Of a DNA stretch of 64,000 nt, positions 37,583 through 64,000 are shown piece by piece (position 1 is the stretch's first letter; the number at the start of each line of letters is the position of its first letter). A program made the translations under genes and the position numbers. The notes under the pieces are model-generated. The model made no database searches and had not been told where the DNA came from. It worked only from the letters and a program-made list of their open reading frames with translations. This DNA comes from Mytilus trossulus (lineage: Eukaryota). The DNA lies in assembly GCF_036588685.1 (NCBI RefSeq), contig NC_086383.1, positions 38,068,001-38,132,000 on the forward strand. The letters run 5' to 3'.

Positions 37583-37601
37583 GTGTGTGTGTGTGTGTGT
37601 G
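37583..37601. repeat. (GT)n microsatellite
   Basis: Direct reading. Confidence 0.9.
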
Positions 37602-37691
37602 CGTTTGTCAGTCGTGTCAACTGGGGACACACACGTGTAGGAAACCCTTCAATTGGGGACACATATCAAACGGGGACGTCCCCAATTGTCA

Positions 37692-39200
37692 AAGTGCTGT
37701 AAATCGATTTTTTTGGCGTCCTTTTCTATCAGAAACAAATTTTCTTTCAAAAACAATTTTAAAAACATTTGTCCTCAATTCAACTATTTCAACCGGACAT
37801 AGTTTGTGTGACGGCTTACATGTTGGTAACTTGCAAAGCGCGGACGTGATACACTCGGTCCCCGTTTGCACCATTTTATTCATATCATGTGACCAAGACC
37901 AAAATGGCGACCCATTAACTAGCAGCGAGGTAAAGTTTATTTGTGTTGCACTATTGCATGTATTATCATGGGCGGATCAATGGTTTTAGATTAGGGGACC
38001 TAACCACTTAAATTAGAATGAGATGCTTTCAAAGATATTTTTATTTTAATGGGATCCTTTGTAATATGGAATTACGGGTTGGGGCCTTTTTGACCTGTCA
38101 ACGTATATTTGTATATAATAATAATGATACAAAATAATAAACTAACCTTTTGTTTGAACCAGTATTTCTATCTTTCATTAAGGAAGCACCCATTAGATTT
38201 CCTGGGGGAGGGGGGGTATGGATTTTTTTCTTGACAAACTTTTTTTTTTGCCTTTGGCTATTTTTTGGCCACAAGTTGAACACAATTTTTTTCTTTCAAT
38301 TTTAGCATTACATATAGCATGTATAGTGGCAGCTGAGGGTGAAACAAACAATATTTTTTTTCTCCAATAACTGGAAACAAACTTTGTTAGTAATCATGTT
38401 GATTCTGTTAAACTTACTGTTTTATATAATTCTTTGAATGTTAACAGACAAATGACAGATGTAATGCGACAACATTAATTTTTCGTCGTCTGCTCAGATA
38501 CTTTATTGAGCTGACATGGCTGAAGACAACCAATGCTTTGCGAATTTTAGAGCCCTCGCCCGCCAACCCCCGCCTTAATCTACCCCTGATTATCCATCTA
38601 TGATGTCTTTTCAAAGATTTACAGGTTATGTAAAATGCCTCGTATGGAGAATGGGTCCAGGAACAGATTCATACCGTCAGTTTCCATTTAACGTAATAAT
38701 TCTAATCTTTAATATATTGTATAACATGGTAAATGTTGGCTTTGCGGAAAATATATTATGTATATATACAAGTTGCAATTGATGCCAGGGTATTAATTAG
38801 CGTACCAGCTCATTAGCCATTTGCAAATAATTTCTAAGCCGTCATGTTAAAATCATGTTTTCGGGACAAATAAGTGTCCTTGTGATATTAATCAATTTTC
38901 AAATACTCTGTGAAATTATGGTACCATTGCTTTGCTAAGTGCTGTACGGTTAATAGATTTGTTTGGGGTCCTCTTCTATCAGTGACAAATTTCTAACAAA
39001 AACAATAATTTAAATAATTGTCCTCAGTTTAACTATTTCAACCGGACATACATATAGTTTGTGTAACGGCTTCCATGTTTGAAACAAGCAAACCGTAGAC
39101 AGGCCACACTCAGTCCGCATTTGCACCATCTTATACATATCACTTGACTGAACCATACATGTAATGGCGACCTGTCTGCATGAAAATAACAGTGGTGAGG
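37692..39200 (+). repeat. diverged direct duplication (37692-37935 vs 38937-39200)
   Basis: Shared blocks AAGTGCTGTA, TTGTCCTCA.TT.AACTATTTCAACCGGACATA, AGTTTGTGT.ACGGCTT.CATGTT, TTTGCACCAT.TTAT.CATATCA and AATGGCGACC. Confidence 0.75.
37967..38588. mobile_element. MITE with CATGGGCGGAT-type TIR and 5-bp TSD, probably with a nested insertion from ~38178
   Basis: CATGGGCGGAT...ATCTACCCCTG; ATTAT duplicated at 37962-66 and 38589-93. Confidence 0.6.
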
Positions 39201-40339
39201 AAAACTTATTTTTTTCAGTAGTCCTTTTGGGTCTCATTGAGGGAACCAGTTCTAACCCTTGATCCCACTTACTGTTTTGACAGATTCCCCTTTCCTGCTT
39301 ACACCATGTACTTAAAACAATTCTCATTTTTTGTCATTTCCCCGGGTCCCGCTAGACTCCATTTCCTGTTTAAACGGCATAATAATTCGGCTTTTACGTG
39401 TCACACTTACAAAAAATCAGCAATGCTGTGTCACGCTTCGACCCCAATGAGACCCACGTTGAAGACTTTGACTAACCCTACCATGGTTTTTCTTTAACAA
39501 ATTGTGACTAAGAGAGTTGTCTCATTGGCACTCAAACCACATCTTATATCTGTATAAATATAGGGGATCTCCATGACCTGTTTTACGATGGCGCACCACC
39601 ATTGTTAAGATATCATCTACCACCGTCCAACATGTCCAATGATCACCGCCATCATTAAATTATCATCCGCCATTCTCAAACAATGTAAAAAAAACTGCTG
39701 TTGTACATTTATAAAAAAATGTTTTTGTTTCTTTAGCGACCCCCATTTTCGCGGTTAGCAACCATAATCAATTTACCCTTAAGCTTTTTGTATTACAATC
39801 CAAAGGGTCCTCCTGATTACAAATTTCATGCCCTAAGGGAAATCCGGCTAAAATTACTAATCACTTTAACACTTGATTGCATTATCATGATTATTAGGTA
39901 ACGTCTGCAAATGCTAACGAAAATTTTAAATAAATAGATAAAGGTTGGATCCAGTATTTTAACAGAGAAAAAAGTGTTACAAGTGGAACACATGATTGCT
40001 TGCACAATCAGCATCTCCCTTTTTTAAACGAGTACAAAATAAGACGTTAAACTAAAGCATATTAGTACAGCAATTATTGATGCATGTAATATTTGATCAC
40101 TCTTCAAGTTTAAAAATAAATACATCATCACTCACAAAACATGAATATTAACTGCAACTTGAAAACTAAAAAAAAATAGTATCATAAATTATACTATTCG
40201 AAGTTCATTTTGTAGTTTGCAATGCAATTGATACATCTGGCTTCAGTTTTTCATTCAAAATTGAAAGATGAATGTTGCATAGTATATTACTATGAAATTA
40301 GCTATGTAAGTCATTTAAACCATGTTCGAATGATGTTTC

Positions 40340-41260
40340 AATATAGGGGCAGTTACCTAACAACGAGTTGTCCAATTCATCTGAAAAATCATGATCAGGG
40401 CAGATAGATCGTGACCAGATAAACAATTTTACCCTTTGTCAGATTTGCTGTAAATGCTTTGGTTTTTGAGTTATACGCCAAAAACTGCATTTTTACCCCT
40501 ATGTTCGATTTTTAGCCATAGCCGACATCTTGGTTGGTTTGCCTGGTCACAAAACACAATTTTTAAACTACATGTAGATAGCCTAATAATGATTCTGGCA
40601 ATGTTTGGTAAAATTTGGCCCATTAGTTTCAGAGGAGAAGATTTTTGTAAAAGTTAACTAAGATTTATGAAAAATGGTTCAAAATTGACTATAAAGGGCA
40701 ATAACTCCTAAAGGGGTCAACTGACCATTTTGGTCCTGTTGACTTATTTGTAAATCTTACTTTGCTGAACATTTTTGCTGTTTACAGTTTATCTCTATCT
40801 ACATCATTTTGTACATGTATAATAATATTCAAGATAATAACCAAAAACAGTAAAATTTCCTTAAAATTACTAATTTAGGGGCAGCAACCAACCCAACAAT
40901 GGGTTGTCTGATTCATCTAAAAATTTCAGGGCAGATAGATCTTGACCTGATAAACAATTTTACCCCGTCTGATTTGCTCTAAATGCTTTGGTTTTTGAGT
41001 TATGAGCCAAAACTGCATTTTACCCCTATGTTCTATTTTTAGCCATGGCGGCCATCTTGGTTGGTTGGCCGGGTCAAAAAACACATTTTTGTTTAACTAG
41101 ATACTTCAATGATGATTGTGGCTAAGTTTGGTTTAATTTGGCCCAGTAGTTTCAGAGGTGAAGATTTTTGTAAAAGTTAACGCCGGACATCGGACGACAG
41201 ACGACGGACGCCAAATGATGAGAAAAGCTCCCTTGGCCTTTTAGGCCAGGTGAGCTAAAA
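40340..41260 (-). mobile_element. Helentron-associated non-autonomous element (HINE/pearl-like)
   Basis: On the minus strand: TTTTTAGCTCACCTGGCC-TAAAA-GGCCAAGGGAGCT terminal hairpin, then (CGTC)n-like microsatellite and an internal direct duplication (~40340-40657 vs ~40876-41180). Confidence 0.8.
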
Positions 41261-43597
41261 ATGACAGTTAAGGAAAATAGTAGTTATTCTATAATGAAAT
41301 ACATATATATATAACATGTATAATAAGCAATGTATATATCAGTCTGTTCAGCATTCCTTACATGGAAATGAAGGAATGAAATATTTTCGATCATGCAACA
41401 GCGTAAAAGTTTTTTCATGGTGAAAGGTGGGTGAAAGTTGCTCCAACATTAAATTTTCATCTAAAAATGTATAGGAGTCCCTGGATATAAATTAAAAAAA
41501 ATAGTCAAAAGTTCTCAGAATATTGGCTTGTTTGCCCACTAAGCACCCTGTAGTTCCGTTTATAAAATCAAAGGCAATGCACTGGGTGTGGTGGTCTATA
41601 TATGATGTAGATGATATTTACCAGTACTGACATTCTCACTTACGGAATAAAATATTACTTATAACGATGAAACTTAAATTAAATTGACCGACCCATCTGC
41701 GGAGGAACTGATAATCTGAAACGAAGCATGCTAAGAAATTTGGTTTCTGTTGACATGTTTGATAAAAATCGACAAGAAATGAAAAAAAGTTAAGTTGGTA
41801 ACTGCTTTTAAAAGGGAAATGATGTGAAACTGGCTTGACAGGTACATTGTATGTCATGTATGTAATGTAAAATTGCTTTTTATTATGGTTATCAGTTTTT
41901 CAAAAGTCAATTAAACTACATATTTACAGGAAAAAAAGACAGTAATTGTTTTATTTCATTTTCTGGGAGAAATGTATGTATTGGCAAGTATTTACCAAAA
42001 CCATTTGAAAAACCGATTGTACATAGAATTTTTTTTTTAACAAAATTATGCACATAAAAGCTCCTGACGTTTTCCAAGGTGAATGTACTTTTTCCGCAGG
42101 TGAATATATGCTTATTTATTCAAAATCCCATTCATATACATGTAGAAAAACTTACTTAAATTTTATCAATATGGAATGAGAGTTTATATTTAGGATAGTA
42201 GGTACCATTTAGCATGATTAGCATGAATAGGGATTAATGAGAATTAGTTGGTAACCATTTTGGATTAACATGATTAATGAAAACTAACTATATATAGTAC
42301 TTATCCATTTAATGATAAGGGTTTAATAGAGCTTTTTTACAAATTGACGAAAGGTACGAATGAACGTAAATAAGGAAGCATGTATTTCATTTCCACAATA
42401 ACAGTTAAAAGACTCTTTGTTTATCCAGTAAAAAATCATTCTTTTCTAAATCAAGTTTATTTTTCAATAATAATATTGTAAATAATACACGATTTTAATA
42501 TAATCAAACAGAGAAAAATAGTGTCAAATACACTTACGTCCGATACGTTAATTTATACGTAAACAACGAGTACACATTTCCCTGGGAATTTTTAAGCACG
42601 ACTTTCACGATTCACATTTCAAAGGCGACATTATTGAAGAAGTTAAAGTCTTAATTTAACGACAAGTGACGACAAGCTTCAAATTTATTTTTATTTTTTA
42701 TAGTACACTTTCAGCAAATTGTCAAAGTGGAATATCAAGATTTACTAAAAAATGATGCTACAATGTTTTTAAAAAGTAATGTTGAATAAATCTAGAAAAA
42801 ACAGATTTTATACAACAGGAAAATAAATCTAAAATTTTGCACCGTATATATTGTGGATCTTATAATGACGATTTAACAGTACACATGTTTGGAAGATAGA
42901 CGCGAAGTTGTCACTTATCGTCCAGTGGCTAATATTTCATGAATGTTCAGGACTATAGACAAAACGCAATTATACTACGCTAAAATAACCGTTCCATTGC
43001 TCTGGTGTATCATATATACACATTAAGGGGGGCAACGAATATTACCAGGGGAGAGGCGCCTATGAATTTAAAGTTATTAAACGAGCACCAGTATATGACA
43101 TAGTACAAATGTAGTATAAAGATCATCTTTTTTCCTTCATTTTCATTTTATTTTTTTGAGCGTTGCAAATTTTGAATCAAGGAAGTATCTGTGTTTTAAT
43201 TTGTCTTACTTTGCTGTAAGGGAGGAAGACAATGTATTTGCTTTGACATTTTCTTAGGTTAAATAGTGCAACATTGTAATATTGAAGAGTGGGGAGGGCC
43301 GGTTTTTGGTCTTTTAGAGGCATTTTTTTCAGTCTGACTACTCTAGAATTAGGATTATTTTTTAATTGTTTAAGCCAATGCTTGCCTAGCTTTTTAAATA
43401 ATTCAAGTTTAACAGTTGAGAGTGGAGAAATATTGTAATACACTAGCTATAGTGGTGGAATTGTTTCTCTAATGATTTTTATCCTTTCTTTTCAAAGAAT
43501 TATTTGTTATAATCCTATGCCGAAGGACTTGTGGTTAGGCATGAAGACTGGTTACTAGAACATTATAGATCCTTGACCTACATAATTCGCCTTATTT

Positions 43598-43792
43598 CAA
43601 TAAAATTGCGAATGGAAATTGGGAATAGATCAAAGAGACAACAACCCGACCAAAGAGTGCTCAGTCAACAGCAGAAGGCCACCAAAGGGTCTTTAATGCT
43701 GTGAGAAAATTTGGCGCCCAGAGGTGGTCCTCAGCTGGCCCCTAAATCATGTAAATAAAAGTGTGTACTAGTTCATTGAAAATGGACATCAT
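43598..43792. repeat. second dispersed family (AATAAAATTGAGAATGGAAATGGGGAATGTGTCAAAGAGACAACAACCCGAC)
   Basis: Same terminus at ~18, ~10900, ~14306, ~21980 and inverted at ~27515. Confidence 0.7.
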
Positions 43793-44146
43793 TAGGTTAG
43801 GACATTTTAGATGGAGGGTTGGGATCCTGCAAACATGTTTAACCCCGCCACATTATTTATGTATGTGCCTGTCCCAAGTCAGGAGCCTGTAATTCAGTGG
43901 TTGTCTTTTGTTTATGTGTTGCATATTTGTTTTTCATTCATTTTTTACATAGATAAGGCTGTTAGTTTTCTTGTTTGAATTGTTTTACATTGTCTTATCA
44001 GGGCCTTTTACAGCTGACTATGCGGTATGGGCTTTGCTCATTGTTGAAGGCTGTATGGTGACCTATAGTTGTCAATGTCTGTGTCATTTTTGTCTTTTGT
44101 GTATAGTTGTCTCATTGGCAATCATACCACATCTTCTTTTTTATAT
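43793..44146 (+). repeat. dispersed repeat family copy
   Basis: High similarity to 1310-1684 and, inverted, to 45567-45903. Confidence 0.85.
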
Positions 44147-45566
44147 ATTTTTAAACATTTGCAAAGGACAGACAATTAAAAAAGTCTGTTAAGGCACAAA
44201 GAAGTTCTAAGAGTTCAAGAAAAGATAGGATGACATTTTTACTTGTATACATTTGTAAGTAAAAAAACATTGAAAACAAAGGAACATAACTAAGCCTATT
44301 TTTGTTTACCTATACAAGTCAATAGAATACACTTGTATATACATATGTGTACCCCACAAATTTACTTATATAAGTATATAATACTTACTTCTTCAAGTAA
44401 ATAAAAAATACTTGTACAAGAAGGTACCCTGACTGATATACAAAAAATGTACATGCCGTTAACATTGGTTAAGCTCAAAACATAAATTTTATATTTTAAA
44501 CAAAATATTTGTTGGTTTATTGTTTTGCTCTTGAAGCCATTTTGTGGTCATGTAAATGTATAGGACAACAGAGTTGGTGTATGTGGGTTCGATTCCCACC
44601 CTAGGCATTAATTCATATAGGCTGGTGCAAAGTGGGCAGTTGAGCTTAGTGGCCCTGCGCTGACTCTGTTGTTCCTATATCAAAATGTCAACTTGCCATG
44701 GGTGGGCTTGATTGCTTTCTATCTCCTTTTTTTCAAAGTCTTAAACAACCAAACCCTGCAGGTACATTGTATATATATTTTGAAATTTTTTACATTGTAT
44801 ATTGTGAAATTCGTGTTTTGGTTATTTAGATTATACTCTGGTTGCATTACCATCTTGACCATAAGGGTCCATTGAACAGCAAAAGGTTAATGATTAGCAA
44901 CAGACAGATTTTACTTTTTGCTCTGCTCTGCTCTGCTCTGCTGTGCTAATTATGATAAAATTATATTGGCTTTGGAATTTGAAAATTTCCTGAAATTAAC
45001 AGTTATTGGTTATACGGACTTCTTTTCAAATGCCTTCAGATATTCAGCTGATATTTGTATATATCAGTCTACTATGAGACGTTTAACAGATCAAGTAACT
45101 ATGTTTCATTGACATTCTATTCTGCTTTTTTTGTTAAAACTATGGATTTTTTACTTAAAGTTATGAAAATAAGATATTTCCAGAATTTCTTTCTATATAT
45201 ACAGCCCGTAACAGAGAAGTGATCGAATTGATGTTTCTTTACCGTCAAAATTAGCTACGTTATCGACAAACTTAATTGAGTAGTGACGGAACTATTGGTA
45301 GATTTGTACTTTAACGTTAAAAAGATTGACAATGCTGACAAACTTTCATGTGTCGATAATCAAGTTTAATACCGATAATATTGAAAATAATTCTAATAAT
45401 ATGAAACAAAATATGTCCATGCACCATTTCGATTGGGCGAAAAGTAGTCAATTTTCTTCAAAGTCAGAACAGAAAAAAAAGATTTATGGAAGGACGTCTT
45501 GAAAGTATTATTTCCTTTACAATTTTACCCAAAACTAAAAGAAATATACTGGTAAACAATTAAAAA

Positions 45567-45903
45567 TATAAAAAAGAAGATATGGTATGATTGCCAATGT
45601 GACAACTATCTACAAAAGACCAAAATGACACAAACATTAACAACTATAGGTCACTGTACGGCCTTCAACAATGAGCAAAGCCCATACCGCATAGTCAGCT
45701 ATAAAAGGCCCCTATAAGACAATGTAAAAGAATTCAAACGAGAAAACTAATGGCTTCATTTATGTAAAAAATGAACGAAAAACAAATATGTAACACATAA
45801 ACAAACGACAACCACTGAATAACAGGCTCCTAACTGTGGACAGGCACATACATAAATAATGTGGCGGGGTTAAACATGTAAGCGGGATCCCAACCCTCCC
45901 CCT
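45567..45903 (-). repeat. dispersed repeat family copy
   Basis: Inverse of 43810-44146. Confidence 0.85.
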
Positions 45904-46244
45904 AAAAAAGGTGTTTGATAGGAATGAAGTCCTTTATTTTTTCGGACTACAATGTGTATCATATGTGTGATGGATTTGAATTCAATCTATAACTTTGAAA
46001 TGTTTTCTCATATGTATACACAAAAGGGAGGACTGGTATTTGTACTTCTGTTAGAATATAAGTCTTCGTCCTTTTCCCCATGTTCACATTCCAAACTTTT
46101 TCTAGTACAGTTTAAACAGGAAAATTTTGTTGAGAATTTTTTTTAATACGACAAAATAACGAGCAAAACTATTTCTTGCAATGGCACACACAGAGAATAT
46201 TTTTTTTAGTAAAAATCAGTAAAAAAAAATTCTCCAAAATATAC

Positions 46245-49200
46245 TATGGCCAGGACAAATATAAATGAAGAATCATGAATTCTCAAATTTTCCACTAAAC
46301 AGCCCATCTGCCATTAAATGTTATGTAAGCTTGTGACTCAACTTGGTGTCTGTGGTAATCCATTACTTCTCCGATTCAGAACTACCAAAAAACTATTATG
46401 AGAAAATAAAAATCAGGATTCAAGATTTCTCCAAATTTCCACTAAACATATGTCCTCATTTAGTAGGACTCTATCATATGTGTGTCCCCACTTGATGGTA
46501 CTTAGACAATCATATGTGTGTCCCATATTGAATTTATTAGAAAATGTTGTGTTATCACCTTTCAGCTCACATGGCATAAAGGGTCATATGAGCTTGGCTG
46601 ATGTTCAACATTTCTTTTATTTCAGGAGCTTTAAAGATAAGTTATGTCTATTCATCTGTCCGTCCAAATACATTTTTAATATATCACATTATACTGTCAA
46701 TAACTAATCTTTTTGGTAGTGATGGTCTGATGATTCACAAAAGTGTCAAATTCTCCTGTCATTAGTGGAGAAGATAGCAGCATGATACCTTAACTTTTCT
46801 TTCCTCAAATAACCAGAAAAAACATATTGGCAATAAATATAAATGAAGAATCATGATTTCTCAAAATTTCCCCTTAACAGCTTATCTGACATTATATGTC
46901 ATGTGAGCTTGTGACTCAATTTGGTGTCTGTGGTAATCCATTACCTCTCCGATTCAGAATTACCAAACAACTATTATAAGAAAATAAAAATAAAGATTCA
47001 AGATTTCTTCAAATATCCACTAAACATGTCCTCATTTAGTAGGACTCTATCATGTGTGTCCCCACTTGATGGTACTTGGACAATCATATGTGTGTCCCAT
47101 ATTGAATTTGTTAGACAATGTTGTGTTATAACCTTTCAGCTCACCTGGCATAAAAGGTCATATGAGCTTGGCTGATGTTCAACATTTCTATTATTTTAGG
47201 AGCTTCTCTGATTTAGACACACTCAAAATACTATTATCAGCAGATATAAATATAGAATCAAGATTTCTCCACATTTCCTATAAACATGTCCTCATTTAGT
47301 AGGACTCTATCATGTGTGTCCCCACTTGATGATACTTGGACAATTATCTGTGTGTCCCACATTGAAATTGTTAGAAAATGTTTTGTTATCACCTTTCAGC
47401 TCACCTGACATAAAAGGTTATATGAGCTTGGCTGATGTTCAACATTTCTATTATTTTAGGAGCTTCTCTGATTTAGACACACTCAAAATACTATTATGAG
47501 CAGATATAAATATAGAATCAAGATTTCTCCACATTTTCTATAAACTTGTCCTCATTTAGTAGGACTCTATCATGTGTGTCCCCACTTGATGATACTTGGA
47601 CAATTATCTGTGTGTCCCACATTGAAATTGATAGACAATGTTGTGTTATCACCTTTCATCTCACCTGGCATAAAAGGTCATATGAGCTCGGCTGATGTTC
47701 AACATTTCTTTTATTTCAGGAGCTTCTCTGATTAAGACACACTCAAAATACTATTATCAGCAGATATAAATATAGAATCAAGATTTCTCCACATTTCCTA
47801 TAAACATGTCCTCATTTAGTAGGACTCTATCATGTGTGTCCCCACTTGATGATACTTGGACAATTATCTGTGTGTCCCACATTGAAATTGTTAGACAATG
47901 TTGTGTTATCACCTTTCATCTCACCTGGCATAAAAGGTCATATGAGCTCGGCTGATGTTCAACATTTCTTTTATTTCAGGAGCTTCTCTGATTTAGACAC
48001 ACTCAAAATACTATTATCAGCAGATATAAATATAGAATCAAGATTTCTCCACATTTCCTATAAACATGTCCTCATTTAGTAGGACTCTATCATGTGTGTC
48101 CCCACTTGATGATACTTGGACAATTATCTGTGTGTCCCACATTGAAATTGTTAGAAAATGTTGTGTTATCACCTTTCAGCTCACCTGACATAAAATGTCA
48201 AGTGAGCTTGTGCTGATGTTCAACATTTTTTTTCGTTTAAGGGGCTTTAAAGATTTACTAATGTCTGTTTATCTGTACCCCCCAATACATTTTCAATACT
48301 AGTATATCAATTGATGTTGTCAATCACAGATCTTGTTGGTAGTGAAGGTCTGATGATTGACAAAACTTTCAAATTCTTCATTCATTTTCTGATCTCAAAT
48401 AACCAGAAAAAAACATATTGGCAACACATATAAATTTCCACTAAACAGCTCACTTGGCATTAACAGTCATGTAAGCTTGTGACACAACTTGGTGTCTGTT
48501 GTAATTCATTACTTCTCCGATTCAGAATTACCAAAAAACTATTATCAGAAAAAAAAATGAAGATTCAAGATATATCCACATTTCCACTTAACATGTCCTC
48601 ATTCAGCAGGACTCTATCATGTGTGTCCCCACTTGATGGTACTTGGACAATCATATGTGTGTCCCATATTGAATTTGTAAGACAATGCTGTGTTATCAGC
48701 TTTCAGCTCACCTGGCATAAAGGGTCATATGAGCTTGGCTGAGGTTCAACATTTCTTTTATTTCAGGAGCTTTAAAGATAAGTTATGTCTATTCATCTGT
48801 CCGTCCAAATACATTTTTAATATATCACATTATACTGTCAATCACTAATCTTTTTGGTAGTGATGGTCTGATGATTCACAAAAGGGTCAAATTCTCCTGT
48901 CATTAGTGGAAAAGATAGCAGCATGATACCTTAACTTTTCTTTCCTCAAATAACCAGAAAAAACATATTGGCAATAAATATAAATGAAGAATCATGATTT
49001 CTCAAAATTTCCCCTTAACAGCTTATCTGACATTATATGTCATGTGAGCTTGTGACTCAATTTGGTGTCTGTGGTAATCCATTACCTCTCCGATTCAGAA
49101 TTACCAAACAACTATTATAAGAAAATAAAAATAAAGATTCAAGATTTCTTCAAATTTCCACTAAACATGTCCTCATTTAGTAGGACTCTATCATGTGTGT

Positions 49201-52200
49201 CCCCACTTGATGGTACTTGGACAATCATATGTGTGTCCCATATTGAATTTGTTAGACAATGTTGTGTTATGACCTTTCAGCTCACCTGGCATAAAAGGTC
49301 ATATGAGCTTGGCTGATGTTCAACATTTCTATTATTTTAGGAGCTTCTCTGATTTAGACACACTCAAAATACTATTATCAGCAGATATAAATATAGAATC
49401 AAGATTTCTCCACATTTCCTATAAACATGTTCTCATTTAGTAGGACTCTATCATGTGTGTCCCCACTTGATGATACTTGGACAATTATCTGTGTGTCCCA
49501 TATTGAAATTGTTAGAAAATGTTTTGTTATCACCTTTCAGCTCACCTGACATAAAAGGTCATATGAGCTTGGCTGATGTTCAACATTTCTATTATTTTAG
49601 GAGCTTCTCTGATTTAGACACACTCAAAATACTATTATGAGCAGATATAAATATAGAATCAAGATTTCTCCACATTTTCTATAAACTTGTCCTCATTTAG
49701 TAGGACTCTATCATGTGTGTCCCCACTTGATGATACTTGGACAATTATCTGTGTGTCCCACATTGAAATTGTTAGACAATGTTGTGTTATCACCTTTCAT
49801 CTCACCTGGCATAAAAGGTCATATGAGCTCGGCTGATGTTCAACATTTCTTTTATTTCAGGAGCTTCTCTGATTTAGACACACTCAAAATACTATTATCA
49901 GCAGATATAAATATAGAATCAAGATTTTTCCACATTTCCTATAAACATGTCCTCATTTAGTAGGACTCTATCATGTGTGTCCCCACTTGATGATACTTGG
50001 ACAATTATCTGTGTGTCCCACATTGAAATTGTTAGAAAATTTTTTGTTATCACCTTTCAGCTCACCTGACATAAAAGGTCATATGAGCTTGGCTGATGTT
50101 CAACATTTCTATTATTTTAGGAGCTTCTCTGATTTAGACACACTCAAAATACTATTATCAGCAGATATAATATAGAATCAAGATTTCTCCACATTTTCTA
50201 TAAACTTGTCCTCATTTAGTAGGACTCTATCATGTGTGTCCCCAGTTGATGATACTTGGACAATTATCTGTGTGTCCCACATTGAAATTGTTAGACAATG
50301 TTGTGTTATCACCTTTCATCTCACCTGGCATAAAAGGTCATATGAGCTCGGCTGATGTTCAACATTTCTTTTATTTCAGGAGCTTCTCTGATTTAGACAC
50401 ACTCAAAATACTATTATCAGCAGATATAAATATAGAATCAAGATTTTTCCACATTTCCTATAAACATGTCCTCATTTAGTAGGACTCTATCATGTGTGTC
50501 CCCACTTGATGATACTTGGACAATTATCTGTGTGTCCCACATTGAAATTGTTAGAAAATGTTGTGTTATCACCTTTCAGCTCACCTGACATAACAGGTCA
50601 TATGAGCTTGGCTGATGTTCAACATTTCTATTATTTTAGGAGCTTCTCTGATTTAGACACACTCAAAATACTATTATCAGCAGATATAAATATAGAATCA
50701 AGATTTTTCCACATTTCCTATAAACATGTCCTTATTTAGTAGGACTCTATCATGTGTTTCCCCACTTGATGATACTTGGACAATTATCTGTGTGTCCCAC
50801 ATTGAAATTGTTAGAAAATGTTTTGTTATCACCTTTCAGCTCACCTGACATAAAAGGTCATATGAGCTTGGCTGATGTTCAACATTTCTATTATTTTAGG
50901 AGCTTCTCTGATTTAGACACACTCAAAATACTATTATCAGCAGATATAAATATAGAATCAAGATTTCTCCACATTTTCTATAAACTTGTCCTCATTTAGT
51001 AGGACTCTATCATGTGTGTCCCCACTTGATGATACTTGGACAATTATCTGTGTGTCCCACATTGAAATTGTTAGACAATGTTGTGTTATCACCTTTCATC
51101 TCACCTGGCATAAAAGGTCATATGAGCTCGGCTGATGTTCAACATTTCTTTTATTTCAGGAGCTTCTCTGATTTAGACACACTCAAAATACTATTATCAG
51201 CAGATATAAATATAGAATCAAGATTTTTCCACATTTCCTATAAACATGTCCTCATTTAGTAGGACTCTATCATGTGTGTCCCCACTTGATGATACTTGGA
51301 CAATCATCTGTGTGTCCCACATTGAAATTGTTAGAAAATGTTTTGTTATCACCTTTCAGCGCACCTGACATAAAAGGTCATATGAGCTTGGCTGATGTTC
51401 AACATTTCTATTATTTTAGGAGCTTCTCTGATTTAGACACACTCAAAATACTATTATCAGCAGATATAAATATAGAATCAAGATTTCTCCACATTTTCTA
51501 TAAACTTGTCCTCATTTAGTAGGACTCTATCATGTGTGTCCCCACTTGATGATACTTGGACAATTATCTGTGTGTCCCACATTGAAATTGATAGACAATG
51601 TTGTGTTATCACCTTTCATCTCACCTGGCATAAAAGGTCATATGAGCTCGGCTGATGTTCAACATTTCAATTATTTCAGGAGCTTCTCTGATTTAGACAC
51701 ACTCAAAATACTATTATCAGCAGATATAAATATAGAATCAAGATTTTTCCACATTTCCTATAAACATGTCCTCATTTAGTAGGACTCTATCATGTGTGTC
51801 CCCACTTGATGATACTTGGACAATTATCTGTGTGTCCCACATTGAAATTGTTAGAAAATAATGTGTTTTCACCTTTCAGCTCACCTGACATAACAGGTCA
51901 TTTGAGCTTGGCTGATATTCAACATTTCTATTATTTTAGGAGCTTCTCTGATTTAGACACACTCAAAATACTATTATCAGCAGATATAAATATAGAATCA
52001 AGATTTCTCCACATTTCCTATAAACATGTCCTCATTTAGCAGGACTCTATCATGTGTGTCCCCACTTGATGATACTTGGACAATTATCTGTGTGTCCCAC
52101 ATTGAAATTGTTAGAAAATGTTGTGTTATCACCTTTCAGCTCACCTGACATAAAATGTCAAGTGAGCTTGTGCTGATGTTCAACATTTTTTTCGTTTAAG

Positions 52201-55200
52201 GGGCTTTATAGATTTACTAATGTCTGTTTATATGTACCCCCCAATACATTTTCAATACTAGTATATCAATTGATGTTGTCAATCACAGATCTTGTTGGTA
52301 GTGAAGGTCTGATGATTGACAAAACTTTCAAATTCTCCATTCATTTTCTGATCTCAAATAACCAGAAAAAAACATATTGGCAACACATTTAAATTTCCAC
52401 TAAACAGCTCACTTGGCATTAACAGTCATGTAAGCTTGTGACACAACTTGGTGGCTGTGGTAATTCATTACTTCTCCGATTCAGAATGACCAAAAAACTA
52501 TTATCAAAAAAAAAAAATGAAGATTCAAGATATATCCACATTTCCACTTAACATGTCCTCATTCAGCAGGACTCTATCATGTGTGTCCCCACTTGATGGT
52601 ACTTGGACAATCATATGTGTGTCCAATATTGAATTTGTAAGACAATGCTGTGTTATCACCTTTCAGCTCACCTGGCATAAAGGGTCATATGAGCTTGGCT
52701 GAGGTTCAACATTTCTTTTATTTCAGGGGCTTTAAAGATAAGTTATGTCTATTCATCTGTCCGTCCAAATACATTTTTAATATATCACATTATACTGTCA
52801 ATCACTAATCTTTTTGGTAGTGATGGTCTGATGATTCACAAAAGTGTCAAATTCTCCTGTCATTGGTGGAGAAGATAGCAGCATGATACCTTAACTTTTC
52901 TTTCCTCAAATAACCAGAAAAAACATATTGGAAATAAATATAAATGAAGAATCATGATTTCTCAAAATTTCCCCTTAACAGCTTATCTGACATTATATGT
53001 CATGTGAGCTTGTGACTCAATTTGGTGTCTGTGGTAATCCATTACCTCTCCGATTCAGAATTACCAAACAACTATTATAAGAAAATAAAAATAAAGATTC
53101 AAGATTTCTTCAAATTTCCACTAAACATGTCCTCATTTAGTAGGACTCTATCATGTGTGTCCCCACTTGATGGTAGTTGGACAATCATATGTGTGTCCCA
53201 TATTGAATTTGTTAGACAATGTTGTGTTATAACCTTTCAGCTCACCTGGCATAAAAGGTCATATGAGCTTGGCTGATGTTCAACATTTCTATTATTTTAG
53301 GAGCTTCTCTAATTTAGACGAACTCAAAATACTATTATCAGCAGATATAAATATAGAATCAAGAGTTCTCCACATTTCCTATAAACATGTCCTCATTTCG
53401 TAGGACTCTATCCTGTGTGTCCCTACTTGATGATACTTGGACAATTATCTGTGTGTCCCACATTGAATTTGTTAGAAAATGTTGTGTTATCACCTTTCAG
53501 CTCACCTGACATAAAATGTCAAGTGAGCTTGTGCTGATGTTCAACATTTTTTTAAGGGGCTTTAAAGATTTACTAATGTTTGTTCATCTGTACCCCTAAA
53601 CATTTACAATAGATCAATTGATGTTGTCAATCACAGATCTTGTTGGAAGTGATGGTCTGATGATTGACAAAACTTTCAAATTCTCCATTCATTTTCTGTT
53701 CTCAAATAACCAGAAAAAAACATATTGGCAACAAATATAAATTTCCACTAAACAGCTCACCTGGCATTAAAAGTCAGGTAAGCTTGTGACTCAACTTGGT
53801 GTCTGTGGTAATTCATTACTTCTCCGATTCAGAATTACCAAAAAACTATTATCAGAAATCAAAAAAATGAAGATTCAAGATTACTTCACATTTCCACTTA
53901 ACATGTCCTCATTCAGCAGAACTCTATCATGTGTGTCCCCACTTGATGGTACTGGGACAATCGTAAGGGTGTCCCATATTGAATTTTTTAGACAATATTG
54001 TGTAATCACCTTTCAGCTCCCCTGCCATAAAAGGTCATATGAGCTCGGCTGATGTTCAACATTTCATTTATTTCAGGAGCTTTAAAGATTAGTTATGTCT
54101 ATTCATCTGTCCGTCCAAATACATTTTTAATATATCACATTATACTGTCAATCACTAATCTTTTTGGTAGTGATGGTCTGATGATTCACAAAAGTGTCAA
54201 ATTCTCCTGTCATTAGTGGAGAAGATAGCAGCATGATACCTTAACTTTTCTTTCCTCAAAGAACCAGAAAAAACATATTGGCAATAAATATAAATGAAGA
54301 ATCATGATTTCTCAAAATTTCCCCTTAACAGCTTATCTGACATTATATGTCATGTGAGCTTATGACTCAATTTGGTGTCTGTGGTAATCCATTACCTCTC
54401 CGATTCAGAATTACCAAACAACTATTATAAGAAAATAAAAATAAAGATTCAAGATTTCTTCAAATTTCCACTAAACATGTCCTCATTTAGTAGGACTCTA
54501 TCATGTGTGTCCCCACTTGATGTTACTTGGACAATCATATGTGTGTCCCATATTGAATTTGTTAGACAATGTTGTGTTATAACCTTTCAGCTCACCTGGC
54601 ATAAAAGGTCATATGAGCTTGTCTGATGTTCAACATTTCTATTATTTTAGGAGCTTCTCTGATTTAGACACACTCAAAATACTATTATCAGCAGATATAA
54701 ATATAGAATCAAGATTTCTCCACATTTCCTATAAACATGTCCTCATTTAGTAGGACTCTATCATGTGTGTCCCCACTTGATGATACTTGGACAATCATAT
54801 GTGTGTCCCATATTGAATTTGTTAGACAATGTTGTGTTATAACCTTTCAGATCACCTGGCATAAAAGGTCATATGAGCTCGGCTGATGTTCAACATTTCT
54901 ATTATTTTAGGAGCTTCTCTGATTTAGACACACTCAAAATACTATTATCAGCAGATATAAATATAGAATCAAGATTTCTCCACATTTCCTATAAACATGT
55001 CCTCATTTAGTAGGACTCTATCATGTGTGTCCCTACTTGATGATACTTGGACAATTATCTGTGTGTCCCACATTGAAATTGTTAGAAAATGTTGTGTTAT
55101 CACCTTTCAGCTCACCTGACATAAAATGTCAAGTGAGCTTGTGCTGATGTTCAACATTTTTTCCGTTTAAGGGGCTTTAAAGATTTACTAATGTCTGTTT

Positions 55201-58200
55201 ATCTGTACCCCCCAATACATTTTCAATACTAGTATATCAATTGATGTTGTCAATCACAGATCTTGTTGGAAGTGATGGTCTGATGATTGACAAAACTTTC
55301 AAATTCTCCATTCATTTTCTGTTCTCAAATAATCAGAAAAAAAACATATTGGCAACAAATATAAATTTCCACTAAACAGCTCACCTGGCATTAAAAGTCA
55401 GGTAAGCTTGTGACTCAACTTGGTGTCTGTGGTAATTCATTACCTCTCCGATTCAGAATTACCAAACAACTATTATAAGAAAATAAAAATAAAGATTCAA
55501 GATTTCTTCAAATTTCCACTAAACATGTCCTCATTTAGTAGGACTCTATCATGTGTGTCCCCACTTGATGGTACTTGGACAATCATATGTGTGTCCCATA
55601 TTGAATTTGTTAGACAATGTTGTGTTATAACCTTTCAGCTCACCTGGCATAAAAGGTCATATGAGCTTGGCTGATGTTCAACATTTCTATTATTTTAGGA
55701 GCTTCTCTGATTTAGACGAACTCAAAATACTATTATCAGCAGATATAAATATAGAATCAAGATTTCTTTACATTTCCTATAAACATGTCCTCATTTAGTA
55801 GGACTCTATCATGTGTGTCCCCACTTGATGATACTTGGACAATTATCTGTGTGTCCCACATTGAAATTGTTAGAAAATGTTGTGTTATCACCTTTCAGCT
55901 CACCTGACATAATATGTCAAGTGAGCTTGTGCTGATGTTCAACATTTTTTTCGTTTAAGGGGCTTTAAAGATTAACTAATGTCTGTTTATCTGTACCCCC
56001 AATACATTTTCAATACTAGTATATCAATTGATGTTGTCAATCACAGATCTTGATGGAAGTGATGGTCTGATGATTGACAAAACTTTCAAATTCTCCATTC
56101 ATTTTCTGTTCTCAAATAATCAGAAAAAAACATATTGGCAACAAATATAAATTTCCACTAAACAGCTCACCTGGCATTAAAAGTCAGGTAAGCTTGTGAC
56201 TCAACTTGGTGTCTGTGGTAATTCATTACTTCTCCGATTCAGAATTACCAAAAAACAATTATCAGAAATCAAAAAAATGAAGATTCAAGATTACTTCACA
56301 TTTCCACTTAACATGTCCTCATTCAGCAGGACTCTATCATGTGTGTCCCCACTTGATGATACTGGGACAATCGTAAGGGTGTCCCATATTGAATTTTATA
56401 GACAATATTGTGTAATCACCTTTCAGCTCCCCTGCCATAAAAGGTCATATGAGCTCGGCTGATGTTCAAATTTCATTTATTTCAGGAGCTTTAAAGATTA
56501 GTTATGTCTATTCATCTGTCCGTCCAAATACATTTTTAATATATCACATTATACTGTCAATCACTAATCTTTTTGGTAGTGATGGTCTGATGATTCACAA
56601 AAGTGTCAAATTCTCTTGTCATTAGTGGAGAAGATAGCAGCATGATACCTTAATTGTCTTTTCTCAAATAACCAGAAAAAAACATATTGGCAATAAATAT
56701 AAATGAAGAATCATGATTTCTCAAAATTTCCCCTTAACAGCTTATCTGACATTATATGTCATGTGAGCTTGTGACTCAATTTGGTGTCTGTGGTAATCCA
56801 TTACCTCTCCGATTCAGAATTACCAAACAACTATCATAAGAAAATAAAAATAAAGATTCAAGATTTCTTCAAATTTCCCCTTAACATGTCCTCATTTAGT
56901 AGGACTCTATCATGTGTGTCCCCACTTGATGGTACTTGGACATTCATATGTGTGTCCCATATTGAATTTGTTAGACAATGTTGTGTTATAACCTTTCAGC
57001 TCACCTGGCATAAAAGGTCATATGAGCTTGGCTGATGTTCAACATTTCTATTAATTTAGGAGCTTCTCTGATTTAGACACACTCAAAATACTATTATCAG
57101 CAGATATAAATATAGAATCAAGATTTCTTCACATTTCCTCATTTAGTAGGACTCTATCATGTGTGTCCCCACTTGATGATACTTGGACAATTATCTGTGT
57201 GTCCCACATTGAAATTGTTAGAAAATGTTGTGTAATAACCTTTCAGCTCACCTGACATAAAATGTCAAGTGAGCTTGTGCTGATGTTCAACATTTTTTTC
57301 GTTTAAGGGGCTTTAAAGATTTACTAATGTCTGTTTATCTGTACCCCCAATACATTTTCAATACTAGTATATCAATTGATGTTGTCAATCACAGATCTTG
57401 ATGGAAGTGATGGTCTGATGATTGACAAAACTTTCAAATTCTCCATTCATTTTCTGTTCTCAAATAATCAGAAAAAAACATATTGGCAACAAATATAAAT
57501 TTCCACTAAACAGCTCACCTGGCATTAAAAGTCAGGTAAGCTTGTGACTCAACTTGGTGTCTGTGGTAATTCATTACTTCTCCGATTCAGAATTACCAAA
57601 AAACTATTATCAGAAATCAAAAAAAATGAAGATTCAAGATTACTTCACATTTCCACTTAACATGTCCTCATTCAGCAGGACTCTATCATGTGTGTCCCCA
57701 CTTGATGGTACTGGGACAATCGTAAGGGTGTCCCATATTGATTTTTTTAGACAATATTGTGTAATCACCTTTCAGCTCCCCTGCCATAAAAGATCATATT
57801 AGCTCGGCTGATGTTCAACATTTCATTTATTTCAGGAGCTTTAAAGATTAGTTATGTCTATTCATCTGTCCGTCCAAATACATTTTTAATATATCACATT
57901 ATACTGTCAATCACTAATCTTTTTGGTAGTGATGGTCTGATGATTCACAAAAGTGTCAAATTCTCCTGTCATTAGTGGAGAAGATAGCAGCATGATACCT
58001 TAACTTTTCTTTCCTCAAATAACCAGAAAAAAACATATTGGCAATAAATATAAATGAAGAATCATGATTTCTCAAAATTTCCCCTTAACAGCTTATCTGA
58101 CATTATATGTCATGTGAGCTTGTGACTCAATTTGGTATCTGTGGTAATCCATTTCCTCTCCGATTCAGAATTACCAAACAACTATTATAAGAAAATAAAA

Positions 58201-61200
58201 ATAAAGATTCAAGATTTCTTCAAATTTCCACTAAACATGTCCTCATTTAGTAGGACTCTATCATGTGTGTCCCCACTTGATGGTACTTGGACAATCATAT
58301 GTGTGTCCCATATTGAATTTGTTAGACAATGTTGTGTTATAACCTTTCAGCTCACCTGGCATAAAAGGTCATATGAGCTTGGCTGATGTTCAACATTTCT
58401 ATTATTTTAGGAGCTTCTCTGATTTAGACACACTCAAAATACTATTATCAGCAGATATAAATATAGAATCAAGATTTCTCCACATTTCCTATAAACATGT
58501 CCTCATTTAGTAGGACTCTATCAGGTGTGTCCCCACTTGATGATATTTGGACAATTATCTGTGTGCCCCACATTGAAATTGTTAGAAAATGTTGTGTTAT
58601 CGCCTTTCAGCTCACCTGACATAAAAGGTCATATGAGCTTGGCTGATGTTCAACATTTCTATTATTTTAGGAGCTTCTCTGATTAAGACACACTCAAAAT
58701 ACTATTATCAGCAGATATAAATATAGAATCAAGATTTCTTCACATTTCCTATAAACATGTCCTCATTTAGTAGGACTCTATTATGTGTGTCCCACATTGA
58801 AATTGTTAGAAAATGTTGTGTTATCACCTTCCAGCTCCCCTGCCATAAAAGGTCATATGAGCTCGGCTGATGTTCAACATTTCTTTTATTTCAGGAGCTT
58901 TAAAGATTAGTTATGTCTGTTCCTCTGTCCGTCCAAATACATTTTCAATATTTCACATTATACTGTCAATCACTAATCTTGTTGGTAGTGACTGTCTGAT
59001 GGTTCACAAAATAAAGGCAACAGTAGTATACCGCTGTTCAAAACTCATAAATCCATGGACAAAAAACAAAATCGGGGTAACAAACCAAAACCGAGCGAAA
59101 CGCATTAAATATAAGAGGAGAACAACGACACAAGACCGCAACGCAACACACACAGAAACAGACCAATCATTAGACAAAACACCACGAGAATAACAAATGT
59201 AACATGAAAACCAAATACATGAATTTGGGATAGACAAGTACCGTGCCACGTCTCATCTCAATATCTCAAAAATAAGAGAAAACACAAACGACTCAACGTT
59301 AAAAATGTCAAATTCTCCAGTCATTTGTGGAAAAGATATCAGCATTATACCTGAACTTTTCTGATCTCAAAAAAACAGAAAAAAACATATTGGCAATAAA
59401 TATAAATGAAGAATCATGGTTTTCAAAATTTCCACTAAACAGCTTACATGGCATTAAAGGTTATGTAAGCTTGTGACTCAACTTGGTGTCTGTGTAAATT
59501 CGTTACTTTTCCGATTCAGAATTACCAAAAAAATATTATCAGAAAAGAAAATTAGATTTCTCCACATTTCCACTAAACATGTCCTCATTTTGCATGACTC
59601 TATCATGTGTTTCCCCACTTGATGGTACTGGGACAATTAAATGTGTGTCCCATATTGAATTTGTTAGAAGATATTGTGTTATCACCTTTCAGCTCACCTG
59701 GCATAAAAGGTCATATGAACTTGGGTGATGTTTAACATTTCTTTTATTTCAGGATAAGTTTTGTGTGTTCATCTGTCCGTCCAAATACATGTTCAATACA
59801 TCACATGATGCTGTCAATAACTAATCTTGTTGGTAGTGATGGTCTGATGATTCAAAAAAGAATCAAATTCTCCAGTCATTGGTGGAAAAGATATCAAAAT
59901 AATACCTTAACTTTTCTAATCTCAAATAACCAGAAAAACATATTGGCAACAAATATAAATGAAGAATCATAGTTAAGCAGAATTTTAAGTAAACTGCTCA
60001 ACTGGCATAGAAGTCATGTATTCTCTGCCTTAACTTGGTGTATGTAGTCGTTCATTACTTGTATGATTCAGAATAGCCCAGAAAACTATTATCAGCAGAT
60101 ATAAATATAGAATCAAGATTTCTCCACATTTCCTATAAACATGTCCTCATTTAGTAGGACTTTATCATATGTGTGTCCCCACTTCATTGTACTTGGACAA
60201 TCATATGTGTGTCCCATATTGAATTTGTTAGAAAATAATTTGTTATCTCCTTTCATTTCACCTGGCATAAAGGGTCATATAAGCTTGGCTGATGTTCAAC
60301 ATTTCTTTTATTTCAGGAGCTTTAAAGATTAGTAATGCCTGTTCGTCTGTCCGTTCAAATTTATTTTTAATATATCACATAATGTTGTCAATCACTAATC
60401 TTGTAGTTAGTGATGGTCTGATGATTCACAAAAGTGTCAAATTCTTCTGTCATTGGTGTAAAAGATAGAAGCATGATACCATAACTTCTCTTATCTCAAA
60501 TAACAAGACAAAACATATTGGCAACACATATTAATTAAGAATCATAATTTTGCAAAATTTTAACTAAAATGCTCACATGGCATAGAAGGTCATGTATGCT
60601 TTGCCTTAAATTAGTGTCTGTAGTCGTCCATTAATTTTAAGATTCAGAATTACCCAAAAACTATTATCAGCAGAAAAAATATAGAATCAAGATTTCTCCA
60701 AATTTCCACTAAACATGTCCTCATTTAGTAGGACTCTATCATATGTGTGTCCCCCCTTGATAGTAATTCGATATTTATATGTGTGTCCCATATTGATTTT
60801 CTTAGAACATGTTGTGCTATCACCTTTTATCTTCTCTGACATAAGAGGTTGACCGAGCTTATGCTGATGTTCAACATTTCGTTCATTTCAGGGGCTTTAA
60901 AGATTTCCTAACATCTCTTTTTCTGTATCTCCCAACAAATATAAATGAAGAAACATGATTTCTCAAAATATATTCTAAATATGTCACCTGGCATTAAATG
61001 TGGTGTAAGCTTGTGAGTCAGGTTGGTGTCCGTGGTAATCCATTACTTCTCCGATTCAGAATTACCAAAAGAGTATTATAAGAATAAAACCAAAAGATTC
61101 AAGATTTCTCAACATTTCCACCTTGGCATGTCCTCATTTAGTAGGACACTACCATATGTGTGTCCCCACTTGATGGTAATTGGACAATCATATGTGTTTC

Positions 61201-61297
61201 CCATATTGAATTTGTTAGGAAATGTTTTGTTATCACCTTTTAGCTCACCTGGCATGAAAGGTCACATGAGCTTGGCTGATATTCAACATTTCTTTTA
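46245..61297 (+). repeat. complex higher-order satellite array (260-, ~527- and ~575-bp units sharing a ~185-bp core)
   Basis: 39 cores starting CATGTCCTCATTTAGTAGGACTCTATCATGTGTGTCCCCACTTGATG counted by eye; the 260-bp period is also visible in the ORF track (49455, 49715, 49975...). Confidence 0.95.
59009..59303 (-). mobile_element. ~295-bp dispersed-repeat insertion (probable retroelement 3' fragment) inside the satellite
   Basis: Interrupts the linker sequence TTCACAAAA|GTGTCAAATTCTCC; reverse strand ends ...GAACAGCGGTATACTACTGTTGCCTTTATTT; absent from all other units. Confidence 0.75.
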
Positions 61298-63805
61298 TAG
61301 CACAGGTCTTGTGTTTTACAAAGGATGTGAACCCTAGATAACATTCCTATAACACAGGTCCTGTGTTTTACAAGCGATATCAACCCTAGATAACATTCCT
61401 ATAACACAGGTCTGGTGATTTACAAGAGATTTTAACACTAGATAACATTCCTATAACACAGGTCTGGTGTTTTACAAGTGATATGAGCACTAGATAACAT
61501 TCATACAACACAGGTCCTGTGTTTTACAAGAAATGTGAACCCTAGATAACATTCCTATAACACAGGTCCTGTGTTTTACAGGGGATATCAACCCTTGATA
61601 ACATTCTTATATAACAGGTCCTGTGTTTAACAAGAGAAATCAACTCTAGATAATATTCCTATAGGACATGTACTGTATTTTACAAGGGATATGAACCCTA
61701 GATAACATTTCATAACACCGGTCCTGTGCTTTACAAGAGATATGAACCATAGATAACATTCCTATAACACAGGTCCTGTGTTTTACAAGCGACATCAACC
61801 CTATATAACATTCCTATAACACAGGTCCTGTGTGTTACACGTGATATGAACCCTAGGAACATTCCTATAACAGGGGTCTTGTGTTTCACCAGCTATATCA
61901 ACCCTAGGAACATTCCTTTAACAAAGGTCTTGTGTTTTACAAGTGATATGAACCCTAGACAGCATTTCTATTACAAAGGTCCTGTGCTTTACAAGACATA
62001 TGAACCCTAGATAACATTCCTATAGCACAGGTCCTGTATTTTACTAATGACATGAACCCTAGATAACATTCATAAACCTTTGTTCCTGTGTTTTACAGGG
62101 AATATGAACCCTAGATAACCATCCTATAACAATGGTACAGAGTTTTATAAGGGATATGCACCCTAATAACATTCCAATAACACAGGTCCTGTGTTTTACA
62201 AGCGATATAAACACTAGATAAAATGCCAATAACACAGGTCTTATGTTTTACAAGCGATATGAACCCTAGATAACATTCCTATAACACAGGTCTTGTGTTT
62301 TACAAGGAATATGAACCCTATATAACGTTCCTAAGGCATATGTCCTGTGTTTTACAAGAGAAATGAACCCTAGAAAACATTCCTATTACACATGTTCTGT
62401 GTTTTACAGGGGATATCAACCCTAGATAACATTCGTATAACACAGGTCCTGTGTTTTACAAGTGAAAAGAACCCTAGATAACATTCCTATCACACAGGTC
62501 TTGTGTTTTACAAGGAAAATGAACCCTAAATAGCATTCCTAGAACACAGGTCTTGTGTTTTACAAGTGATATGAACCCTATATACCATTCCTATAACACA
62601 GGTCTTGTGTTTTACAAGGGATATCAACCCTAGATTACCTTCCTATAACACAGGTCTTGTGTTTTACAAGCAATATGAATCCTAGATAACGTTCATATAA
62701 CACAGGTTTTGTGTTTTACAAGGGATATCAGACCTAAATAACCTTCCTATAACACAGATCTTGTGTTTTACAAGGGATATCAACACTAGATAACATTCCT
62801 ATAACACAGGTCTTGTGTTTTACAAGTGATATGAACCCTAGATATTATTCCTATAACACAGGTCTGGTGTTTTACAAGCGATATGAACCCTAGATAACAT
62901 TCCCTTAACACAGGTCTTGTGTTTTACAAGGGATATCAACCCTAGATAACATTCCTATAACACAGGTATTGTGTTTTACAAGCGATATGAACCCTAGATA
63001 ACATTCCTATAACACAGGTTTTGTGTTTTACAAGCGATATGAACCCTAGATAACATTCCTATAATACAGGTCCTGTGTTTTACAAGAGATATGAACACTA
63101 GATAACATTCCTATAACGCAGGTCTTGTGTTTTTAAAGGGATATCAACCCTAAATAACTTGCCTATAACACAAGTCCTGTGTTTTACAAGAGATATCAAC
63201 CCTAGATAACATTCCTATAACACAGGTCTTGTGTTTTACAAGCGATATGAACCCTAGATAACATTCCTATAACACAGGTCCTTTGGTTTACAATTGATAT
63301 GAACCCTAGATAACATTTCTATAACACAGGTATTGTGTTTTACAAGGGATATCAACCCTAGATACCATTCCTATAACACAGGTCCTGTGTTTTACAAGCG
63401 ATATGAACCCTAGATAACATTTCTATAACACAGGTATTGTGTTTTACAAGGGATGTCAACCCTAGATACCATTCCTATAACACTGATCCTGTGTTTTACA
63501 AGCGATATGAACCCTAGATAACATTCCTATTACACAGGTCCCGTGTTTTACAAGCGATATGAACCCTAGATAACATTCCTATAACACTGGTCCTGTGTTT
63601 TACAAGCGATATAAACCCTAGATAACATTCCTATCACACAGGTCCTGTGTTTTACAAGAGATATGAACCCTAGATAACATTCCTATAACAGAGGTCTAGT
63701 GTTTTACAAGCGATATGAACCCTATATAAAATTCCTATATCACAGGTCTTGTGTTTCATAAGCGATATGAACCCTAGATAACGTTCATATAACATAAGTA
63801 CCGTG
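61296..63805 (+). repeat. 52-bp tandem satellite, ~48 copies
   Basis: Consensus GAACCCTAGATAACATTCCTATAACACAGGTC(C/T)TGTGTTTTACAAG(C/G)GATAT; period 52 (e.g. CCTAGATA at 62941 and 62993). Confidence 0.97.
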
Positions 63806-63844
63806 ATCGACGAAGCCCATTTGAAATGTACAAAAAAGATTGAC

Positions 63845-63950: not shown

Positions 63951-64000
63951 CTTAGTCAAGTATATTTCCCAGTTTGATTTTTGTTAGAAAGAGATATGAA

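Follow-up and report, generated by a model that had tools for sequence, protein, structure and literature searches.

A hairpin satellite of Mytilus trossulus lies within a large, probably transposable element with fixed ends at TG tracts

An unsettled question in satellite biology is how long arrays come to occupy new chromosomes, and the published vehicles for their dispersal in bivalves are short Helentron derivatives that carry few monomers. This question is raised by a stretch of 64,000 nucleotides from the mussel Mytilus trossulus (NCBI RefSeq assembly GCF_036588685.1, contig NC_086383.1, positions 38,068,001 to 38,132,000 of the forward strand; hereafter the window), which contains a satellite array (46245..61297, plus strand) whose repeating core resembles a terminal hairpin of the Helentron/HINE type. 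According to the original prediction for this locus, the HINE terminus itself had been amplified about 39 times head-to-tail, as expected of rolling-circle concatemers, and each unit might still be a Rep/helicase substrate. Here, we compared the array and its surroundings with their relatives elsewhere in the genome. The results suggest that the array is quite probably the interior of a non-coding, non-autonomous cut-and-paste DNA transposon of 41-121 kb that targets TG tracts and carries satellites. This large surrounding element had been overlooked previously.

A recurrent element with fixed ends at TG tracts

The element consists of a TG tract, a fixed left end, an 8.6-kb arm, the hairpin array, a 52-bp array, a 2-kb arm, a fixed right end and a second TG tract, and the left arm, the hairpin array and the 52-bp satellite recur together at other places in the genome. 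In the window, all parts lie on the plus strand. A (TG)9 tract, the target site (37584..37601), abuts the left end (37602..37630), which comprises 12 bp followed by a 17-bp subterminal inverted repeat (37614-37630). The non-coding left arm (37602..46244) includes common host repeats and a 200-bp segment duplicated at 77% identity (37692-37893 versus 38937-39148), the open frames of which have no Pfam match. The 52-bp satellite starts at 61296, fills the window to 64000 and extends past it, measuring 25.7 kb in this copy; its array is interrupted by spacers of ∼195 bp (the first at about 63795-63990), in which a motif block of the hairpin satellite is kept and the hairpin is absent.

Seven copies with a left end were found on four chromosome-scale contigs (denoted C and a number): the window copy and C11:31.90, C8:43.09, C8:59.70, C8:76.28, C13:44.95 and C6:3.62 Mb. 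All seven begin at the same point (window position 37602), directly after a TG tract and with the same first bases, and the 2-kb right arm has a common end point before TG repeats at five places. The six copies that could be measured are 40.8, 65.3, 65.7, 69.8, 71.8 and 120.7 kb long, nested insertions counted. Their left arms are 97-99% identical to that of the window copy in four cases and 86-88% identical in two older ones. The right end is also covered by contigs from public DNA sequencing, in four runs that carry four organism labels, and the family is therefore not peculiar to one assembly.

The insertion sites have only the dinucleotide repeat in common. When 13 flanks of 300 bp were compared, none resembled another, and of the 23 TG/CA tracts of at least five units present in 1.464 Mb, 17 lie at element ends, 1 at an empty site and 5 elsewhere. 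The empty site (C8:76.35 Mb) is a 99%-identical duplicate of both flanks of a filled one: it reads (TG)11, and the filled site reads (TG)8, element, (TG)8. This difference points to a duplication of ∼10 bp, with a length blurred by slippage. Moreover, the element is absent from a paralogue of the left flank of the window copy (89% identical, 82 kb distant), in which a short TG run is present.

The copies could also be units of transposase-independent duplication, produced when the repair of breaks in or near satellites uses another locus as template and TG tracts provide the landing homology. This explanation draws support from the very large size of the copies, from those copies that end at differing internal points straight at a TG tract and from the lack of a partner transposase among our search results (see below). 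However, we consider it unlikely in view of the identical left base in 7/7 copies and the identical right end in five, the inverted repeat placed 12 bp inside both ends, the shortness of the bordering tracts (5-30 units) and the clean empty site. Still less probable is a one-ended or strand-transfer movement, in which the left end and the TG target are fixed, the right end is variable and no two-ended excision takes place. Left ends are indeed invariant and always at TG (8/10 distinct sites are left ends or their relics, with 0 in the control), and the right side, complete at five places, is shortened at TG in three events. On the other hand, the right end has its own motif cluster as well as a genuine inverted repeat, junctions of the Helitron type (TC/CTRR or AT/TT) are absent, and the C6 copy retains its outermost right-end bases after an internal loss, as might be expected of a right-end cut followed by resection.

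Several further insertions and relics were noted around these copies. Of an eighth copy (C13:2.0366-2.058 Mb), a right end is present together with 20 kb of the 52-bp array, which runs into Ns; searching the following 70 kb did not reveal the left part. Isolated old left ends adjoin TG tracts at C2:66678124 and C14:78944545. At C11:32.81 and 31.58 Mb, two truncated five-unit arrays end at a TG tract within duplicated blocks containing B-box/TRIM-like frames. Within the last 12 bp of one right end lies a 1.2-kb element (C8:76347776-76348985) with inverted ends and a TTA duplication, which we take from these traits to be PIF/Harbinger-like. Judged by eye, the frames of a 15-kb insertion in a 52-bp array (C8:59720297-59735541) resemble a DIRS-type retroelement, and two tandem tRNA-like pieces (C6:3644700-3645150) lie at the edge of a 28-kb insertion in the C6 copy.

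The terminal motif and the search for a transposase

In complete copies, the 17-bp repeat (16/17 between the ends) sits 12 bp inside each end in inverted orientation, and the outer 12 bp of the two ends match in part only. Exact searches of the genome returned the repeat 13 times, in each case at an end or an end relic, and the control gave no match. Its core motif, GTCCCCAnTT, clusters at both ends: allowing up to one mismatch, seven occurrences fall in the final 401 bp of the right end and seven in the first 600 bp of the element. At the same stringency, the hairpin array contains 69 occurrences, all on one strand, and 37.6 kb of flank contains 5. The best-conserved columns of the array core are three such 10-mers, of the GTCC(C/T)CA type (example block at 47028..47103, plus strand). 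The rate of change in these columns is about half that of matched columns (1.50 versus 2.77 changes; 0/20,000 permutations; block null P 0.003), in a test that uses related, converting copies and motifs chosen by their likeness to the terminal repeat, which lessens its weight in favour of a transposon. Aligned with the motif block of the core, the right end matches at 62/90, modestly above shuffles (52 versus a maximum of 48), and the terminal fold of the element is no better than that of shuffles. This motif is the best-conserved part of the core and is also kept in the 52-bp array, in its spacers. It therefore appears that the feature maintained throughout the element is its own terminal motif, not the HINE stem.

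Other observations weigh against a two-ended cut-and-paste transposon. First, a transposase was not found in any copy examined: among 83 frames scanned against Pfam, a LINE insert alone passed the cut-offs, and the same scan gave no coding function for the array or the arms. Second, an autonomous partner sharing the 17-bp repeat was not found among its 30 genome matches at up to one mismatch; of the 17 with one mismatch, 11 are members of an unrelated dispersed family of ∼610 bp, 5 stand alone and 1 is a left-end relic. Third, inverted symmetry does not extend to the outermost 12 bp, and within a TG tract a target duplication leaves no readable trace. Fourth, a search of the 77 kb beyond the 52-bp array of the window copy did not reveal its right end. 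Fifth, the copies at C8:59.7 and C6 and a duplicated C11 fragment break off immediately at a TG tract while still in the arrays or the right arm, which would not be expected if both ends were cut. Finally, duplicated old right-end relics (C14:67.713 and C7:23.348 Mb) lack a TG tract, and a search for the right end followed by TG was uninformative, with 2 matches versus 8 in the control.

The search for a partner was carried into regions with related sequences. Reading by eye the regions behind the C2, C14 and C7 relics revealed no transposase-like frame, and a pattern scan of metagenomes gave one match, in a GC-rich contig with no other similarity. The ∼610-bp dispersed family mentioned above has its near match to the 17-bp repeat in its interior. 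On C5, sequences related to the array unit but older are present at 51.31, 69.36 and 87.52 Mb. Such relatives (116/153) immediately precede the disrupted final exon of a Tnp2 transposase of the CACTA type, assigned through PF02992 and PF13960 in protein P0002; the two C5 loci beside this exon are one duplicated event and lack the ends of our element. A HINE-like piece suspected in the C5 relatives was dropped, its score being 25 versus a shuffle maximum of 32. At C5:51.31 Mb, a 671-bp unit is repeated four times and contains an acidic exon-like piece between AG and GT, with a separate 230-bp array upstream.

A near-complete CACTA-type (Tnp2) transposase-like gene of 11 exons with long introns is present at C12:9013621-9023054 (minus strand). 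It is 76-100% identical per exon match to P0002, has a partial twin at C19:2.70 Mb and many broken pieces across C5, and could be a domesticated transposase. Its introns contain neither the motif block nor the hairpin. CACTA/EnSpm (CMC) elements have repeated subterminal motifs and internal tandem arrays, as does the mussel element, and their termini are CAC...GTG. However, no left end of the mussel element starts with CAC, although its right side is readable as GTG within the tract. The connection with CACTA is at most a lead: shared ends did not emerge, and unit relatives stand near the Tnp2 exon at one duplicated C5 locus only.

The hairpin array and its HINE-derived cores

The extent of the array (46245-61297) was confirmed, as were its 39 cores, here called A, of which 38 match the 36-mer of the original prediction at 25/36 or better and one (60825) at 24/36. 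The three predicted unit lengths were also recovered, with core spacings of ∼260 bp (21 times), ∼527 bp (6 times) and ∼575 bp (7 times) and three irregular ones. In addition, the array contains 16 copies of a second hairpin type, B, which had escaped notice, and the two types follow each other in the order BABAAAAABAB...BAABBA. That every core carries the 36-mer is correct for approximate matches; exact matches occur in only 7/38 cores. Likewise, the stem described as kept has its outer six pairs intact in 24/38 cores, and a full 13-pair hairpin is found in only 6/38. The remnant ascribed to the long units, TCTGTCCGT, is present nine times in tails of the 575-bp type, ∼60 bp downstream of the hairpin and beyond the reach of the HINE alignment; tails of the 527-bp type lack it. 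TCTGTCCGTCC (for example 46655..46665, plus strand; 9 array sites) may be a HINE microsatellite remnant. One unit is interrupted by a common dispersed repeat (approximately 59009..59300, no strand assigned).

The commonest core, A (example 47134..47169, plus strand), is a copy of the HINE 5′ end with a degraded hairpin, and its fold is at shuffle level (z -0.5). Six cores of the window, termed A′, have the full 13-pair HINE-type hairpin and fold as well as the HINE end (example 48174..48209, plus strand, -10.8 kcal/mol, z -4.9; the others at 52134, 53495, 55105, 55893 and 57241). The B hairpin (example 53750..53815, plus strand) is a second 5′-derived piece, which extends the alignment with the HINE start (45/58) and has no T-run ahead. 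Regarding a possible function as RNA, no Rfam match was obtained in 37000-64000. Splice-like motifs lie beside some cores, and RNA contigs from mixed communities include scraps in the array with no usable joint, which is no evidence either way.

The match on which the original prediction was founded was reproduced. The 36-mer aligns ungapped at 30/36 with the reverse complement of 41225-41260, and none of 2,000 dinucleotide shuffles of the 1.6-kb unit block reached this score (mean 18.7, maximum 24). The aligned segment belongs to a HINE family member (40339..41261, minus strand), a passenger in the left arm. Complete copies of this family start with a T-run and the hairpin and end with a 3′ subterminal inverted repeat and a palindrome, and published HINE anatomy identifies the matched piece as the 5′ subterminal inverted repeat and inverted repeat (PMC4067079, PMC7492417). 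Four dispersed HINE copies of one subfamily match the A′ core at 33/36. The homology is thus real, and a HINE 5′ terminus has been amplified within the satellite. The likeness is, however, confined to 36-60 bp of each 260-575-bp unit. Longer homology was sought and rejected: nine dispersed HINE copies from two pattern searches align over at most 65 bp, at the 5′ end only. The neighbouring HINE is not the donor of the array hairpin, because it has no 3′ end of its own and because the C13 copy has another sequence at this place and the C6 and C8:59.7 copies lack the region, yet all three bear hairpin arrays. A complete two-ended HINE is inserted on the opposite strand in a T-run of a sister array (C8:43.096-43.098 Mb).

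The proposed mode of amplification did not hold up. A probe for the HINE 3′ end (subterminal inverted repeat and palindrome), which recovers real 3′ ends elsewhere at 29-38/38, gave at best 19/38 on either strand of the array, equal to flanking DNA. The junction of the 260-bp unit joins an A tail to a B tail ∼35 bp past the hairpin, off the HINE nick site. Furthermore, the oldest or more diverged copies (C13, C6 and two fragments) contain 575-bp A+B units only, and 260- and 527-bp units are confined to five young copies. A rolling-circle concatemer is therefore not supported.

That each unit is still a Rep/helicase substrate is also improbable for 39 units at once. Over nine arrays, the full 13-pair hairpin is found in 26/193 A cores and in 0/109 B cores, and none of the 109 B hairpins is preceded by a T-run. 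In trees of 155 distinct A cores (from 189/193 with full flanks) and 75 distinct B cores (from 104/109), stems change as often as the rest of the core (composition-matched P 0.41 for outer and 0.13 for inner pairs), and selection on the 12-nt subterminal inverted repeat was not detected (P 0.09). Lone dispersed units at TT sites were not encountered: all 117 listed genome matches, a lower bound obtained from 36/75 scored candidates, lie in element copies or relics, and the four dispersed matches from the HINE pattern search are ordinary HINEs. Hence, of the outcomes that the original prediction regarded as damaging to it, a chance-level match was not seen, whereas no family was found to share more of the unit and the stems show no excess conservation. 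It remains very unlikely that a Helentron Rep/helicase nicked a HINE 5′ end repeatedly to give head-to-tail concatemers whose units are still substrates, even though the 5′ homology and the retained hairpins favour it, plant Helitron arrays in which a single 3′ end is combined with many 5′ ends are cited second-hand in PMC12628747, and the left end of Helraiser is crucial and its right end not strictly required (PMC5876387); besides the points above, the element as a whole is bordered by TG tracts and not by TT. The enzyme may have had a one-off role in making the first dimer.

For a cut-and-paste transposon with satellite cargo, we propose the following course. Next to a cluster of the terminal motif of the element, a HINE 5′ fragment would have been captured once, and its duplication would have given A and B, together the 575-bp unit. 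Recombination would have amplified this unit, and unequal exchange together with short-homology deletion would have remodelled it. A trans-acting transposase would bind the GTCCCCAnTT motif and pair both ends, and the whole element, once excised, would insert into a TG tract with a duplication of roughly 8-10 bp. The HINE hairpin would then be a decaying passenger, likely copied along.

Relation to known elements and implications

Target duplications of Mutator-like elements (MULEs) measure 9-10 bp, and our single pair of empty and filled sites is compatible with a duplication of ∼10 bp. No MULE transposase was linked to the mussel element, no search with MULE profiles having been made. The plant Mutator-like elements that target microsatellites (MuTAnT, Ac-mMITEs and SaTar) are non-autonomous and 0.2-5 kb long (PMC4486113, PMC8449440, PMC5907723). 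Like them, the mussel element lies between dinucleotide tracts, would have its duplication hidden in the tract and leaves the filled site richer in repeat units than the empty one. They differ in having long foldback terminal inverted repeats and (TA)n targets, whereas the mussel element is an animal element of 41-121 kb, lies next to (TG)n, has a 17-bp subterminal repeat and consists mostly of satellite. Dada elements are also target-specific, with short subterminal inverted repeats and no true terminal inverted repeats, as in the mussel, but they target snRNA and tRNA genes and produce 6-7-bp duplications (PMC3706591).

The bivalve HINEs (Cg_HINE, CgiSat01) disperse tandem arrays (PMC7492417, PMC8268682, PMC4067079), and in oyster, tandemised Helitron parts occur inside other elements (PMC12628747). 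The mussel element resembles these HINEs in that a mobile element spreads tandem arrays and in the 36-mer itself, which corresponds to their 5′ subterminal inverted repeat and inverted repeat. In contrast, the HINE end lies here inside the unit, and the carrier has no TT junction and no 3′ subterminal inverted repeat with palindrome. The longest element-associated array quoted for oyster has 89 monomers, as compared with 9-15 kb plus 15-90 kb of array in the mussel element. Regarding size, Helitron-like elements in Repbase reach 39.9 kb (PMC11417382), and a CACTA-flanked mobile block of ∼100 kb in pufferfish, without terminal inverted repeats, was ascribed to recombination (PMC9191631). In the part of PMC10294476 that lists bivalve superfamilies, the mussel element is not mentioned. 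Literature listings yielded no description of it either, although Repbase, Dfam, subscription papers or supplements may hold one.

As a tentative extension, which we regard as possible but doubtful, the element may stand for a previously unrecognised group of animal DNA transposons that targets TG, ranks in size with the largest of the non-autonomous kind and carries up to ∼100 kb of satellite built from its own transposase-binding motif. The motif might be kept because amplified sites load transposase or a host factor, which would let a large cargo move and seed satellite blocks on new chromosomes in single jumps.

In the seven dated copies (arms 86-99% identical), complex satellite amounting to tens of kilobases has appeared with exact borders at TG tracts that are otherwise unrelated, on four chromosome-scale contigs. 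The copies constitute a natural time series for array turnover following insertion and offer a direct means of testing dispersal by transposons. If the cut-and-paste interpretation is true, the known cargo range of non-autonomous DNA transposons would be widened, and microsatellite targeting would extend from small plant elements to a giant animal element.

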